DNA of 64,000 nt from Escherichia phage ECP2303. The DNA lies in sequence record PP261279.1; one strand, written 5' to 3'. Of the stretch, positions 20,313 through 64,000 are shown piece by piece (position 1 is the stretch's first letter; every line of letters begins with the position of its first letter). The notes beneath the pieces were generated by a model. That model ran no database searches and was not told where the DNA came from. It worked only from the letters and a program-made list of their open reading frames with translations. The translations under genes were made by a program, and so were the position numbers.

Positions 20313-20389
20313 TGGTCTCCACGGAGTGATTCGAACACTCGACCTCCTGATCCCAAATCAGGCGCTCTACCAAGCTGAGCTACGCGGAG
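20313..20389 (-). tRNA. tRNA-Pro (anticodon UGG)
   Basis: Hand-folded cloverleaf: T-loop TTCGAAT, anticodon loop UUUGGGA, CCA encoded. Confidence 0.7.
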
Positions 20390-20400
20390 TATTTATTATT

Positions 20401-20475
20401 TGGTGGCCCTGGGTGGAATTGAACCACCGTCTGGCGATTATGAGTCGCTTGCTTGAACCTTCCAGCTACAGGGCC
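20401..20475 (-). tRNA. tRNA-Met or Ile2 (anticodon CAU)
   Basis: Hand-folded cloverleaf: T-loop TTCAATT, anticodon loop CUCAUAA, CCA encoded. Confidence 0.65.
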
Positions 20476-20476
20476 A

Positions 20477-20552
20477 TGGTGCTGATGGCAGGACTTGAAC
20501 CTGCAACCTATTGATTACAAATCAATTGCACTGACAATTGTGCTACATCAGC
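20477..20552 (-). tRNA. tRNA-Thr (anticodon UGU)
   Basis: Hand-folded cloverleaf: T-loop TTCAAGT, anticodon stem AUUGA/UCAAU with loop UUUGUAA, CCA encoded. Confidence 0.65.
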
Positions 20553-20556
20553 AAAA

Positions 20557-20655
20557 GGTGCTAGGTGATGGAATCGAACCACCTATGTATTCAACGACTA
20601 CCTCGTCTATTTTCAGGATTAAAAATCCTCGCCCTTGCCAAAGGGCTTACCTAGC
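20557..20655 (-). tRNA. tRNA-like element, atypical (~99 nt; anticodon unassigned)
   Basis: Canonical acceptor stem (GCTAGGT/ACCTAGC), D arm and T arm (GGTGG-TTCGATT-CCATC), but two internal hairpins both have 5-nt loops, so there is no 7-nt anticodon loop. Confidence 0.4.
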
Positions 20656-20743
20656 GCAATATGTTGACCATGTGGCTAGTCGGCGATGACGACTGTAACA
20701 TTTGATAATCCGGTTCTGCTTCCGGCTTTCGCTTAATTACAAG

Positions 20744-20834
20744 GTCAACAATGTGGCGGAGAGTAATGGAATCGAACCATCATCGAGTTATCCTCAACGG
20801 GACGGTTTTCAAGACCGCTTGAGCACCATTGCTC
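20744..20834 (-). tRNA. tRNA-Ser (anticodon UGA)
   Basis: Class II tRNA with a long variable arm; anticodon loop CUUGAAA, T-loop TTCGATT, CCA encoded. Confidence 0.65.
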
Positions 20835-20958
20835 CCTACCCTCCTTTATAAATTACACTGATAATGACACTGATTTTCGAGCAGTTAGTGACTAGTATAA
20901 ACGACGATAAATATCAATGTCATTATCTGTATGATTTATGCATTTAAAAATATAAATT

Positions 20959-21045
20959 TGGTGGGGAGTGGTGGAGTCGAACCACCCGAGTCGCAATGAC
21001 AATAGATTTACAGTCTACACCGCTACCTCTACGGGATAACTCCCC
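20959..21045 (-). tRNA. tRNA-Tyr (anticodon GUA)
   Basis: Class II-like with a long variable arm; anticodon loop CUGUAAA, T-loop TTCGACT, CCA encoded. Confidence 0.6.
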
Positions 21046-21049
21046 AATT

Positions 21050-21124
21050 TGGCACCCCGTACTGGACTCGAACCAGTGTCAACGGCTTAGAAGGCCGCTG
21101 CTTTATCCACTAAGCTAACAGGGC
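21050..21124 (-). tRNA. tRNA-Arg (anticodon UCU)
   Basis: 75 nt; anticodon loop CUUCUAA, T-loop TTCGAGT, acceptor stem with two G-U pairs, CCA encoded. Confidence 0.6.
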
Positions 21125-60676: not shown

Positions 60677-60982
60677 ATGGCTAAATCTAAAGTTGAACTG
60701 TTCACCTCTCTTCCTTCTGACACTGCAGAACGTGATCGCCTTCGCAAAACAATCGAAGAACTGGTGGAACTCCAGCTTCAGATTAAAGACCTGAAAGATG
60801 CCATCAAGGATATCATTCTCGTTGAGAAGCAGGATCATCTGTATTCTCCTAAATTCATCAAATCTCTGGTGGCTACAGAGTTTGATATCCGCTACGAAGC
60901 TGAAAAACGTCGCGCTAAGATTGAAGAAGAGGTTGAGCACATGTCTGAGGCAGACATTCTGTTCAAACGCTCTGTAGAATAA
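60677..60982 (+). CDS. hypothetical coiled-coil protein
   Basis: 101 aa with AAGGAGA Shine-Dalgarno, followed by a terminator. Confidence 0.5.
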   Translation: MAKSKVELFTSLPSDTAERDRLRKTIEELVELQLQIKDLKDAIKDIILVEKQDHLYSPKFIKSLVATEFDIRYEAEKRRAKIEEEVEHMSEADILFKRSVE

Positions 60983-60987
60983 TATGG

Positions 60988-61013
60988 CAGAGGGGCTACG
61001 GCCCCTCTTTCAC
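60988..61013 (+). terminator. intrinsic terminator
   Basis: GAGGGGC-TAC-GGCCCCTC hairpin followed by TTTCACTATTT. Confidence 0.65.
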
Positions 61014-61034
61014 TATTTGCAAAAGGAACCAGCT

Positions 61035-61361
61035 ATGAGAATACCAATCACTGTGAAAGAGCTAAATGAACGTGATGCAGGCGGTATATGGCCTGCACGA
61101 AAAATCCGCTGCGTTTATATGAAAGAGAATCTTGAACATCTTGATCAACAGATCAAGGTAGGTGATATTTTTGAGGTCTTCTATTCCAATCGTCGCAACT
61201 GGGAAACCATTCAGCCTTCTGGTTTTGTTCTTGCCAAACTTGACACCGGAGAAGTGATTATCCCTGGGTTAGATATTGTCTTCGAAATTATCCAGGAGTG
61301 GGATCCGGATAAGATTAGATACGAAGAGTTATTCGGTAAAGGTATTATCAAACCTGTGTGA
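61035..61361 (+). CDS. hypothetical protein
   Basis: Trimmed to the ATG downstream of the terminator; 108 aa. Confidence 0.45.
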   Translation: MRIPITVKELNERDAGGIWPARKIRCVYMKENLEHLDQQIKVGDIFEVFYSNRRNWETIQPSGFVLAKLDTGEVIIPGLDIVFEIIQEWDPDKIRYEELFGKGIIKPV

Positions 61362-61369
61362 GGTGGATT

Positions 61370-61669
61370 ATGTCTACAAAGGCGGCTAAATACTCCTACA
61401 TGCCATCAACCTCTGCAGAGGTAGACTTTAGTTTCGATGTGTTTCCACTGTTTGAGGTGGTTCTGGCATACCCAACAATACTATCTACTCCTGAATCACT
61501 TGTGCCTGTTAAGTTGCAGAACGCTATGCATTCTATGCACTACAACAATAAATGTAGGCACAGATGGTGTCAGGACGAGGAAAAAGATTTGGATAGTTTG
61601 AGGGATTTTGACAGTCACCTTTTGACACCTTTTAGCTACTCCAATCTTGATAAGCCCTCCTGGGTATAG
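61370..61669 (+). CDS. hypothetical protein
   Basis: Trimmed to the ATG with GAGGTGG Shine-Dalgarno. Confidence 0.45.
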   Translation: MSTKAAKYSYMPSTSAEVDFSFDVFPLFEVVLAYPTILSTPESLVPVKLQNAMHSMHYNNKCRHRWCQDEEKDLDSLRDFDSHLLTPFSYSNLDKPSWV

Positions 61670-61693
61670 CAAAATATCAAATTTAAGACACCT

Positions 61694-61716
61694 AGGACGC
61701 TCTGTGGCGTCCTTTT
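61694..61716 (+). terminator. intrinsic terminator
   Basis: AGGACGC-TCTGT-GGCGTCCT hairpin followed by TTTCTTT. Confidence 0.65.
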
Positions 61717-61882
61717 CTTTATCTGGTGCACGATTGCATACCTTTGACAGATAATCTCATTACAGAGCGTTTAAGAGCTTCCTACAAACAAATCTCTCTT
61801 TCGAGCGTAGCGAGAACGCACGTCCGTTTTGACCCAAATCACCATACGCTCGGATTTTAACCAAACCCTCGCGGCGTTTCTG

Positions 61883-61911
61883 TTGACACATTACCGCTCC
61901 AGTGATAGTAT
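61883..61911 (+). promoter_or_regulatory. sigma70-like promoter
   Basis: TTGACA-N17-TAGTAT upstream of the micro-ORF at 61932. Confidence 0.5.
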
Positions 61912-61931
61912 CCACACATAGTTTGGAGAAT

Positions 61932-62033
61932 ATGGAATACACAATGAGAACATTGTCCGAAGTTTTAGTGGTGATCCTGATGATCATTACGTCCATAGCG
62001 GCTGTTGCCGGAATACTCACAGGTGGGACATGA
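61932..62033 (+). CDS. hydrophobic micro-protein (33 aa), not in the ORF track
   Basis: GGAGAA Shine-Dalgarno; MEYTMRTLSEVLVVILMIITSIAAVAGILTGGT; stop overlaps the next start. Confidence 0.4.
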   Translation: MEYTMRTLSEVLVVILMIITSIAAVAGILTGGT

Positions 62034-62242
62034 TCAACACACATGCATCTGAAGAGACATCCAAAGGAGTGACCATATGTCCCTTGGCTGAGCCAGTTAA
62101 AGAGGAAAACTTAGATTCTGAGGACTCTTCATCTTCGTCCCAGACAGATCCTGAGGCTGATGACCTAACGTGGGAAGACATCGTAGATATCTGGTTCTCT
62201 ATTATGCCTGAGCACGAAGAGTTCAGAGGTGGCAGACTATGA
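62030..62242 (+). CDS. small acidic protein
   Basis: 70-aa ORF, Ser/Asp/Glu-rich. Confidence 0.4.
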   Translation: MINTHASEETSKGVTICPLAEPVKEENLDSEDSSSSSQTDPEADDLTWEDIVDIWFSIMPEHEEFRGGRL

Positions 62243-62363
62243 AGCACCGAGCCCACACAGGTTCCTCATGCTAAAGCATGGCCTGAAGAGGCAAACGTGT
62301 ATAATTATTGTGCATTGGAACGTATAAAACCCTGTTCACACTCTCATTCCCAGAGGAGATTTT

Positions 62364-62579
62364 ATGAAGATAGAGATATTTGGTGGAGCTGACAACACTC
62401 GTGGCCTGATTTACCTTGAATTCGATGAATCATACCTGCCAGAGGTGTTAAATATAGACTCTGTTGCTGAGGCTTTGGGAGTAAACCCTAAAGAACTCCA
62501 CTCTTGTGCTGAGATCGATGGCTGGGAAGAGACCATGAACATTGATTTCAGTGAAGTAGAGGATGAACCGCTGGACTGA
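62364..62579 (+). CDS. small acidic protein
   Basis: 71-aa ORF with GAGGAGA Shine-Dalgarno; last clear gene before the ORF-poor region. Confidence 0.45.
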   Translation: MKIEIFGGADNTRGLIYLEFDESYLPEVLNIDSVAEALGVNPKELHSCAEIDGWEETMNIDFSEVEDEPLD

Positions 62580-62930
62580 CACACAATTAGCTGCCCGGCT
62601 AAAGTGCTGGAAGCACCTATAACACATCTTTCAACTAAATTTCCCACCACCACAATCACTTACCTTCCACACATGACTGTTTGCTTGTTTAGTGAGCAGT
62701 CATGCCTTGACATTCTTGCCTATCCTGATAAAATTAAGTTCTTCTCTTTTCTTTTACCGAGTAATTCGGGTTTTCTGTTCTCTTCGGTTTGAAGGGGGTA
62801 TGGAGATACACCTGAGTGAACAGGGTGAACAACCGAACATTTGGCTATGGCATTAGCATGGCGAAGCGGACGGGTGACGAAAGAGGGGCCGGAGGACACC
62901 AGTCACTGCCATATGACATATGGGTGATAA

Positions 62931-63473
62931 CCTGAAGAGTCTGAATAAGTGTTTAAGTACCAGTCAGAGGAAAAGGTGAATGGTAGCCGAAGGGGAGGGG
63001 GGTTTCTTGTATCTTTAATTTGTATATTATGTATACACTTGTAAACCAATATCATCTAAATCTGTTTACCACACAAAGTGGATAGAGACAAATATTACCT
63101 ATTAAACTTGAATTATTTATAGAAAATACCACAACACCACTTAAGTCTTTGATTTTACACACAAATCTTACAGATATTCAACCTCCATATTTAACATACC
63201 TGTAACATATTCCATACTCTACCTGCCTGATCAATTTCCCCAACTACATCCTCATATTTTCCCTGTCTGTACTACCCCTGCCCCGCCGGGAGTCCCGTCA
63301 TATCTGGCTTTCCAGCAAATATCACACCCACAAATATCATTGCCTGAAGAGGGTTTCATCCCATAATACCTGCCTTACCTGAAGAGCGCTTCATACACCA
63401 CGTAAATTTTTTTTTTTTAATTGACCCCCTGCCCCGCCGGAGAGGTTGGCTTTTCCCACACAGACCTGAAGAG
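62931..63473. repeat. dispersed short direct repeats in an ORF-poor region
   Basis: CCTGAAGAG at 62931, 63343, 63378, 63465; CCCTGCCCCGCCGG at 63276 and 63426; T12 homopolymer at 63407-63418. Confidence 0.6.
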
Positions 63474-64000
63474 TCAGCCAGAAATATCTGAACAGGTCTA
63501 GTTCTGCCACGATTTTGACCTGACCTACAGGAGAGCTGCCAGGCGGACGAAATGGGAATACTTCTCATTCTTATAACAATTCTCAAATATCAAGGCAGTG
63601 AGGCAAATTAATAGGTGAGGCCGTTCACACAGTGGCACAACATTTGCAACCTATCTTGTGTGGAGGAATGAGAATACCTATCATTGTGAGAACCATTATC
63701 ATTACGGGCAATTTAACATAATACCCATTATGCGCACCACTGGCGATACATACAGGGATTGATAACATGAGTTACTGTTTACGCATATAACAATTATATT
63801 TCTTACTATTTGTGTGGGATATAGTTAGCAACCAATAGATTAGATATTGACCTGCAGACTTCTGACCGTCCAGACGTCTAAACGCCCACACACCAAGGGT
63901 TATACATACATTCCTGAATGTAAACAGGGCCGCAAAAATGCTACCATACCAGTTTGTAAATTTTTCATGCAGCACTTGACAAAGAGGAGAAAAACTTGTC

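Follow-up and report, generated by a model that had tools for sequence, protein, structure and literature searches.

Non-coding right end of a Vequintavirus genome: a direct terminal repeat, a strand-polar array of candidate packaging motifs and a near-invariant block

What is a segment of 1.4 kb that holds many short repeats and almost no coding capacity doing at the end of a long run of phage genes? The segment spans positions 62580-64000 of a 64,000-nucleotide stretch of DNA from Escherichia phage ECP2303 (PP261279.1), and this whole stretch is called the window here. Bases 62400-64000 of the window give a 100% megablast match to PP464953.1 (Escherichia phage ECP2309, Vequintavirus, 136,863 bp), and since the record ends exactly where the match does, the window is equivalent to record bases 72864-136863; we refer to the sequence as ECP2309 below. 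In our best explanation, to which we give a probability of roughly 0.6, the region forms the non-coding right-terminal segment of an rV5-like genome (Vequintavirus), and nicking followed by fill-in would generate its terminal repeat during packaging. In replicating head-to-tail DNA the region is the left half of the junction between successive genomes. About 120 further records match bases 62400-64000 at 88-97% identity, all of them vequintaviruses (rV5, FV3, Murica etc.) except for a set labelled as Campylobacter phage; outside Vequintavirus the region found no match, even with blastn in "distant" mode. Our main alignment comprises 11 genomes, ECP2309 and ten relatives.

The terminal position is the first part of the answer. 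A first-pass annotation had listed terminal repeats among the possible meanings of the region and had proposed a comparison with the other end of the genome; that comparison shows window bases 63542-64000 to be identical to bases 1-459 of PP464953.1. The idea of a terminal repeat was right as to location, but the short repeats that had been singled out lie in unique sequence 70-270 bp to the inside of the direct terminal repeat (DTR) and are not part of it. A DTR of 458/459 bp is already published for the genus: phage Gotham has 459-bp terminal repeats with an identical start sequence in all virions (Dias et al. 2020, PMC7471380), and abruptly ending PacBio reads gave 458-bp redundancies for EdH4 and HdK5 (Korf et al. 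2019, PMC6563267). The Gotham record annotates the same 459-bp repeat at both ends, and the records of EdH4, HdK5, YN3 and Gotham all end at the position equivalent to window base 64000. Relatives whose records were opened as circles (rV5, FV3, LL12, Alma, nomine and others) contain a single internal copy, which aligns collinearly with a join of the window end to the record from base 460 on; in records opened elsewhere, this one copy lies in a gap of about 2.5 kb between convergent gene blocks. The stretch appears in rV5 as an empty "non-coding" box between genes 163 and 164 of a genome taken to be permuted (Kropinski et al., PMC3606486), and a later annotation guide termed it a "wasteland with no apparent genes" (PMC8785237). 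A T5-type long terminal repeat, which would measure several kb and carry pre-early genes, is ruled out, as the repeat is 459 bp long and non-coding. Two records, MT884009.2 and MT884011.2 (bov11CS3 and bov25_3), are apparently opened or arranged differently near the left DTR boundary: their match to the query stops at 63531, about 60 nucleotides before the record end, and a second match is found elsewhere in the record.

The two boundaries of the repeat follow a sequence rule that extends well beyond the genus. Inside the DTR, the island ATTTAACATAAnACnnnTTATnCGCAC at 63711-63737 is the best-conserved element across the subfamily; it holds a 6-bp palindrome, CATAAT-ACCC-ATTATG, which suggests a predicted binding site for a dimeric protein. 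An exact-pattern search of IMG/VR with this island returned 22 stretches, most of them from contigs of 120-153 kb, and four of the 22 (L026, L032, L037 and L042; L numbers label fetched loci) were left out because they look spurious. Sixteen loci, in five genus-level groups, allowed the left boundary to be placed, and 15 of them the right boundary as well. With a slash marking the boundary, the left motif reads TGYYA/GRCGGAC (or GGCATGG) in the 16 loci, and the right motif, CTTGACAnGRAGnnnGAAnnTGYY/TRRCA, is conserved across the five groups; its form in the window is CTTGACAAAGAGGAGAAAAACTTGTC (63975-64000), and the alignment of the relatives collapses 5 bp past it. On the other side, 15 bp ahead of the left boundary, is an indel hot spot, where inserts in the relatives range from 0 to 50 bp. 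The DTR lengths predicted from these motifs are 459-460, 514, 509, 515 and 439-445 bp. The second value equals the length published for Klebsiella phage KPP-1 (Mydovirus), whose 514-bp DTR was classed as T7-type by PhageTerm with coverage support (PMC9862379). A contig of 148,842 bp carries an exact 519-bp DTR, running from GACGGAC to ...AAAGTGTT at homologous positions. The deposited ends of ECP2309, the PhageTerm result for KPP-1 and the ends of this contig all fall at homologous motifs, and three separate sources therefore agree. No matching boundary motifs were found in BME3 (Justusliebigvirus). An attempt to reach the junction in other genera by tblastn synteny, using the nearby regulator gene (60677-60979), failed: in 4MG, SSE121, Hena1, TH18 and CR8, which were fetched, the gene lies within a long plus-strand block, and these five loci are therefore uninformative.

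The outer flanks of the two boundaries are inverted copies of one site, TGYYA/RRC. In all 15 loci with both boundaries, four or five of the five outer bases and two or three of the three inner bases match, and at a single locus a match at six of eight positions has a chance probability of about 0.004, in a register that is set by the boundaries and was not searched for. A likeness of the two boundaries in direct orientation (TTGAC..GGAGA../) was seen only in ECP2309, and we dropped it. As judged from sequence, the inverted flank fits a process in which staggered nicks would be followed by fill-in; its orientation would fit 5' overhangs only if the motif-bearing strand is the strand that is cut.

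The repeats that had drawn attention to the region stand next to this boundary. The 15-nucleotide C-rich box CCCCTGCCCCGCCGG occurs twice as described, at 63275 and 63426, 151 bp apart, and its chance expectation is 0.03 even when two mismatches are allowed. CCTGAAGAG is indeed present four times, at 62931, 63343, 63378 and 63465, always on the plus strand, and a fifth copy at 62282, just upstream of the region first flagged, brings five copies into 62282-63473. Eight copies in the whole window, a number that none of the shuffled sequences reached, compare with 0.67 expected; the three distant copies (38162, 39029 and 45660) lie within long open reading frames (ORFs), where they encode Pro-Glu-Glu. 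The division into two subfamilies also stands, with ACCTGAAGAGTC at 62930 and 63464 and a 35-nucleotide tandem pair formed by TTGCCTGAAGAGGGTTTCAT at 63340 and TTACCTGAAGAGCGCTTCAT at 63375. The run of 12 T, at 63407-63418, is real and is the only run of at least nine T or A in the window, but it is not a conserved feature: at its position nine of the ten aligned relatives have six T and the tenth has five, which points to a strain-specific expansion or a sequencing artefact. Two further motifs had been missed, AAATATC (63317, 63332, 63482 and 63585) and CACACA, with nine copies in 62580-63892 against about 1.6 per 2 kb elsewhere. The motif CTGAAG, contained in CCTGAAGAG, is the recognition sequence of the E. 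coli restriction enzyme Eco57I/AcuI, and clustered CTGAAG sites in a coliphage (63275-63473 and the related loci) are odd; the overlap is probably coincidental.

CTGAAG, AAATATC, CACAC and the C-rich box form a set that is found again in genera whose DNA cannot be aligned with that of Vequintavirus, there too in the roughly 400 bp upstream of the left boundary. Summed over 11 loci, the 420 nucleotides upstream of the left DTR boundary contain 17 copies of CTGAAG on the plus strand and one on the minus strand (expected 1.85), 18 and none of AAATATC (expected 1.0), and 23 and four of CACAC (expected 4.8). AAATATC does not occur outside positions -420 to +50 relative to the left cut; one copy, at +43/44, is universal and in the window lies inside the DTR at +43 (63585-63591). 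A Certrevirus-like contig (L044) has two copies of CCTGAAGAGG and one of CTGAAGAGG, and the element GACCTGAAGAGTCAGCC...ATATCT of the window has its KPP-1 counterpart in GACCTGAAGTGTCAGCC...TATTCT. The recurrence of co-oriented motifs across genera indicates that the repeat first flagged belongs to a conserved motif vocabulary at the genome end. Their position, strand polarity and recurrence beside the DTR of other genera make a role of the flagged repeats in packaging plausible, and the motif set as a whole probably provides signals for the terminase, the packaging enzyme.

Under the scheme that we prefer, the terminase or a partner nickase would bind the oriented motif array. The best candidate binding sites are the AAATATC copies flanking the left cut, with CTGAAG, CACAC and the C-rich box as possible auxiliary sites. 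Nicks would then be made in the TGYYA^R strand at the left boundary and, at the right one, in the opposite strand, and a polymerase would fill in the resulting 459-nucleotide 5' overhangs, leaving the repeat on both daughter ends (a Watson/T7-type scheme). Staggered nicks with fill-in are the classical scheme proposed for T7. The coordinates of the features are collected in the table.

Table. Features of the right-terminal region of ECP2309, in window coordinates
Feature	Position	Strand	Basis or content
Right copy of the 459-bp DTR	63542-64000	+	Identity to PP464953.1 bases 1-459
Outer flank of the left boundary	63520-63541	+	Indel hot spot near 63526, then conserved GGAGnGCTGCCA up to the cut (TGCCA/G)
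Strand-polar motif cluster	63275-63493	+	CCCCTGCCCCGCCGG 63275, 63426; AAATATC 63317, 63332, 63482; CCTGAAGAG 63343, 63378, 63465; CACACA 63457; T12
Sigma-70 promoter TTGACA-N16-TAAAAT (predicted)	62707-62734	+	11/12 consensus, TG upstream of the -10; best site in the region
Near-invariant non-coding block, 262 nucleotides	62743-63004	+	Candidate non-coding RNA or transcribed cis-element
A+T-rich spacer, 26-34% G+C	63003-63250		Composition profile; partly replaced in the LL12, MiataMamis, Mangalyan group

Several observations weigh against this interpretation. PhageTerm called headful packaging with partial permutation for another Vequintavirus (PMC13211470), the deposited ends of ECP2309 were possibly set by analogy with relatives, and boundaries taken from reads may be off by 1-2 nucleotides. 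The distance from the motif cluster to the cut is not conserved, with inserts of 0-50 bp within the genus, and the CCTGAAG element found at -76 in ECP2309 lies at -316 in KPP-1. Four of the 11 loci have no CTGAAG in the 420 nucleotides upstream. In KPP-1, two CCTGAAG copies belong to a promoter and to a terminator loop. CTGAAG and CACAC extend at least 840 bp upstream and track the direction of transcription, and their polarity may therefore reflect transcription and not packaging. Because the loci compared are related to one another, the Poisson P values for the motif counts overstate independence and are indicative only.

These points lead to the main rival explanation, in which the short repeats would serve transcription, as sigma-70 promoters (active or decayed), as pause sites or as terminators for convergent transcription into the genome end. 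Motif polarity would then merely follow the direction of transcription, and CTGAAG and CACAC do change strand inside and beyond the DTR, where the switch coincides with the switch in transcription direction. In KPP-1 the good promoters TTGACCTGAAGAGTCA-N-TATACT and TTGACCTGAAGTGTCAGCC-N-TATTCT have a -35 and spacer formed by CCTGAAG elements, and another CCTGAAGAG copy is the loop of a terminator made of a hairpin and a U-run. In ECP2309 the copy at 62282 lies nine nucleotides upstream of the extended -10 TGTATAAT, before the last gene, and that at 63343 overlaps a TTGCCT-N16-CATAAT site matching 9/12 of the consensus. Bidirectional terminators were expected between rV5 genes 163 and 164, where none were found (Kropinski et al., PMC3606486). 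However, in a list of 59 strong promoter-like sites that covered the window together with the left-end flank, not one has the CTGAAG extension, a result on which we rejected CCTGAAGAG as a general promoter extension in this phage. Three of the ECP2309 copies (62931, 63378 and 63465) also lack a usable -10 hexamer. The hairpin around CCTGAAGAG is not conserved, as it measures 8 bp in KPP-1 and only 3 bp in ECP2309. A conserved strong promoter facing the DTR, which we looked for in all genera, was not detectable in most of them, and the confinement of AAATATC to the cut zone, with a fixed copy at +43 inside the DTR, is not predicted by a role in transcription. We consider it rather unlikely that transcription alone accounts for the repeats; the transcription and packaging roles of CCTGAAG-type elements need not exclude each other.

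The instability of parts of the region raises the question of whether the repeats have a function at all, or whether they are remnants of local duplication and slippage in a neutral "wasteland". The T12 run is specific to the strain, five of nine relatives have another sequence in place of the second C-rich box, a 35-nucleotide tandem duplication is present, hypervariable segments occur at 63010-63090, at about 63526 and just beyond the DTR, and the literature has labelled the stretch a "wasteland with no apparent genes" (PMC8785237). Yet conservation exceeds that of the adjacent coding sequence in the 262-nucleotide block, in the DTR and in most motif copies, and the same motifs recur with strict polarity in genera that do not align. 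The data disfavour neutrality, which we regard as very improbable.

Could the gap instead encode several very small proteins? The first-pass annotation had called the region ORF-poor, and the only ORFs in it are mechanical ones of at most 76 amino acids; the record of ECP2309 has none annotated after 62579, and ECP2309, rV5, FV3, LL12 and most other records have no annotated gene here. The records of MiataMamis (L010 2525-5025) and Mangalyan (L011 2525-4982) fill the whole non-coding gap, DTR included, with ORFs of 27-90 amino acids, nearly all shorter than 70. Mechanical ORFs of 30-76 amino acids do exist, and these two records annotate such ORFs, but most records annotate none, and indels and start losses disrupt the ORFs in relatives. 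The ORFs at 62604-62792 and 62692-62856 are frameshifted by a 2-nucleotide insertion in magaca and a 1-nucleotide indel at 62794; the ATG at 62800 is lost in nomine; the minus-strand ORF 62903-63055 is broken by indels of 1-3 nucleotides in the G-run at 62992-63002; and the ORF 63772-63975 is broken by a 1-nucleotide insertion in magaca. Such frameshifts and start-codon losses led us to reject coding potential for the 262-nucleotide block and the DTR and indicate that the small ORFs of MiataMamis and Mangalyan are over-annotations; we give the small-protein explanation almost no credence.

The first-pass annotation had also suggested a cluster of host-takeover promoters, and this was not borne out. 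Only one strong sigma-70 site (62707-62734) is present and all others match at most 9/12 of the consensus; promoter-like sites in the region number nine in total against 4.8 +/- 1.8 in shuffled sequences. Taken as a whole, the earlier interpretation was right about the location of a terminal repeat but found no support for the promoter cluster, and its packaging signals are no more than plausible. The single strong promoter has a predicted transcript start near 62741-62743, and neither of its hexamers varies among the 11 aligned genomes; they are kept in L014/L029, the most divergent relative, where the spacer is altered in sequence and 18 nucleotides long.

Directly downstream lies the least explained part of the region, the near-invariant block. 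Over nine phages, 87-100% of alignment columns per 50-nucleotide bin are invariant, and 92-100% in bins that lie wholly inside the block. One relative matches the block at about 99% identity and its flanks at only 85-89%, and the block is at least 95% identical in 117 of 117 phage records, in some of which the adjacent coding sequence falls to 80-90%. The block begins with a pyrimidine-rich stretch, has a small hairpin with a U-run at 62757-62779 and is G-rich. GGTGA recurs about every 50 nucleotides (~62824, 62873, 62923 and 62975), ACCAGTCA is present twice (62898 and 62959), and the one CCTGAAGAG copy, at 62931, is 82% complementary to CTCTTCGGTTT at 62780. The 3' end is the G-run GGGGAGGGGGG (62992-63002), whose length varies among phages from G4AG6 to G6AG7, and conservation stops exactly after GGGGAGGGGGG-TT. 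Changes private to ECP2309, when set against the ten aligned relatives, are found at 62794, 62838-62843, 62916-62917 and 62992-63002 (an extra G, CATTTGG and GACATA), and no other record therefore exceeds 98.9% identity to the ECP2309 block.

A search of Rfam 15, at the gathering thresholds and with E-values up to 10, gave no match to the block, the best E-value in 62500-64000 being 3.6, with scores far below threshold; in the whole window Rfam finds only tRNAs, elsewhere. The fold of the block has a z-score of -1.18, which is not significantly stable, and the block is too invariant for covariation; its few substitutions fall in the loop of a predicted CCATATG-AC-ATATGG hairpin and in unpaired stretches. 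With the block as query, nhmmer returned no hit in any of the loci from other genera; the block is confined to Vequintavirus and is absent from the E. coli genomes searched. Occurrence in a single genus speaks against a role shared by the whole subfamily.

The combination of block, promoter, G-run and A+T-rich DNA would fit either a stable non-coding RNA or a transcription-primed origin. In the latter case, RNA from the promoter at 62707 would form a persistent RNA-DNA hybrid at G4AG6 and prime replication in the A+T-rich DNA, and the downstream repeats would be initiator or primase sites. Consistent with an origin, the promoter hexamers are kept where the spacer has diverged, the transcribed segment is near-invariant with conservation ending exactly at the G-run plus TT, GGTGA recurs about every 50 nucleotides, and about 200 bp with 26-29% G+C follow directly after the block, together with a sharp switch in GC skew; skew analysis of rV5 placed a switch here (PMC3606486). 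However, the skew switch coincides with convergent transcription, as Kropinski et al. noted (PMC3606486), and no DnaA boxes or long iterons were seen in the sequence or in repeat listings, which were not scanned for them systematically. Moreover, other genera with the same DTR architecture lack the block, which therefore cannot be the common origin of the subfamily. This explanation of the region seems improbable to us.

Returning to nicking and fill-in, one can combine both parts of the region in a single proposal: the DTR would be made by site-specific nicking at inverted asymmetric TGYYA^RRC sites 440-520 bp apart, with the AAATATC array as a loading platform, and the 262-nucleotide block would be an undescribed phage non-coding RNA or an R-loop replication primer ending at a G-run that resembles mitochondrial CSBII. 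That both statements are correct is possible but doubtful.

At the other end of the genome, bases 460-650 of PP464953.1 (L005), starting 5 bp past the right boundary, hold a hypervariable array of TGACAC, TTGACA and TTTACA repeats. It includes inward-facing sigma-70-like promoters, for example TTGACA-N18-CATAAT with a TG at record 492-521, and may correspond, at the left end, to the motif array, or else act as a cluster of entry promoters.

Two side observations were also made. A group of 18 or 19 GenBank entries of the MG0656xx series (e.g., MG065653.1 and MG065659.1) is filed as "Campylobacter phage" with host C. jejuni; these entries, which are probably mislabelled or contaminated, are 87-96% identical to window 60677-64000, and the regulator protein that they encode is 100% identical. 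A cluster of seven tRNAs lies on the minus strand at window 20313-21124 and comprises Pro, Met, Thr, Ser, Tyr and Arg tRNAs and one 99-nucleotide "tRNA-???"; for the last (20557-20655) ARAGORN gives a four-base anticodon (atcc), and the Rfam score is only 35.5 bits.

The terminal reading explains the "non-coding box" or "wasteland" of rV5, which has puzzled annotators since 2013, as a genome terminus with cis-acting signals. The sequence rule TGYYA/GRCGGAC ... CTTGACA-N-TGYY/TRRCA locates the physical ends and predicts a DTR length of 439-519 bp in Vequintavirinae. As most Vequintavirinae genomes are deposited in arbitrary permutations, the rule helps in correct orientation, in phage-therapy dossiers and in engineering (in vitro packaging and rebooting). 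It also defines testable substrates for terminal-repeat duplication, a process whose mechanism is poorly understood outside T7, and the analysis brings to attention a very strongly constrained 262-nucleotide element that is predicted to be transcribed. In the literature that we searched we found no description of the boundary rule, the symmetric flanks, the cross-genus motif array or the constrained block.

The closest known systems are the DTRs of Gotham, EdH4 and HdK5, which belong to the same genus and share sequence (about 96% over a 1.6-kb query that includes the DTR), length and end position; the papers describing them (PMC7471380, PMC6563267) differ from the present account in that they give the length only, with boundary motifs, flanking arrays and the conserved block absent from the description. 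KPP-1 is more distant. Its DTR lies in the same kind of convergent non-coding gap and has the homologous boundaries TGCTA/GACGGAC and CTTGACAAGGAGAGAGAATTGTGTT/TAGCA, and it shares AAATATC at +43, the GACCTGAAGTGTCAGCC element, the C-rich box and the DTR-internal island. In contrast to ECP2309, KPP-1 has a shorter gap, with 334 bp between the last gene and the DTR, no 262-nucleotide block, and CCTGAAG elements that are good promoters. There is no similarity between the two at the blastn level, and a global MAFFT alignment of them is mostly noise, the conserved islands excepted.

For the block alone, the comparison is with ColE1 RNA II, T4 oriF/oriG and mitochondrial CSBII, in which primers are formed from transcripts. 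The likeness lies in the order of parts, in which a promoter is followed by a transcript under constraint, by a G-run (with GGGGAGGGGGG-TTT similar to the CSBII pattern) and by A+T-rich DNA that melts easily; there is no sequence homology, the block is limited to one genus, and priming would be attributed to it by analogy only. The boundaries recall lambda cos, where the nick site cosN has twofold symmetry and the R sites of cosB bind terminase. Symmetry-related nick sites with oriented, repeated binding sites beside them, both putative here, are common to the two systems, whereas the nicks of lambda are 12 nucleotides apart and leave cohesive ends without fill-in, and those presumed here are 459 nucleotides apart and require duplication. 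The junction of T7 and T3 has a terminal repeat of 160-230 bp, short-repeat arrays (SRL/SRR) and pac signals, and transcription into the junction is linked to DNA processing. ECP2309 differs in being a myovirus of about 137 kb that has no phage RNA polymerase, no sequence similarity to T7 and a repeat three times longer, and inverted TGYYA/RRC flanks are, to our knowledge, not a described feature of T7. Nevertheless, both have ends at specific sites, a short and exact DTR of which each junction holds one copy, and oriented short-repeat arrays in the adjoining unique DNA, and the hypervariable short repeats on the other side of the ECP2309 junction (record 460-650) resemble the second array of T7 and T3.

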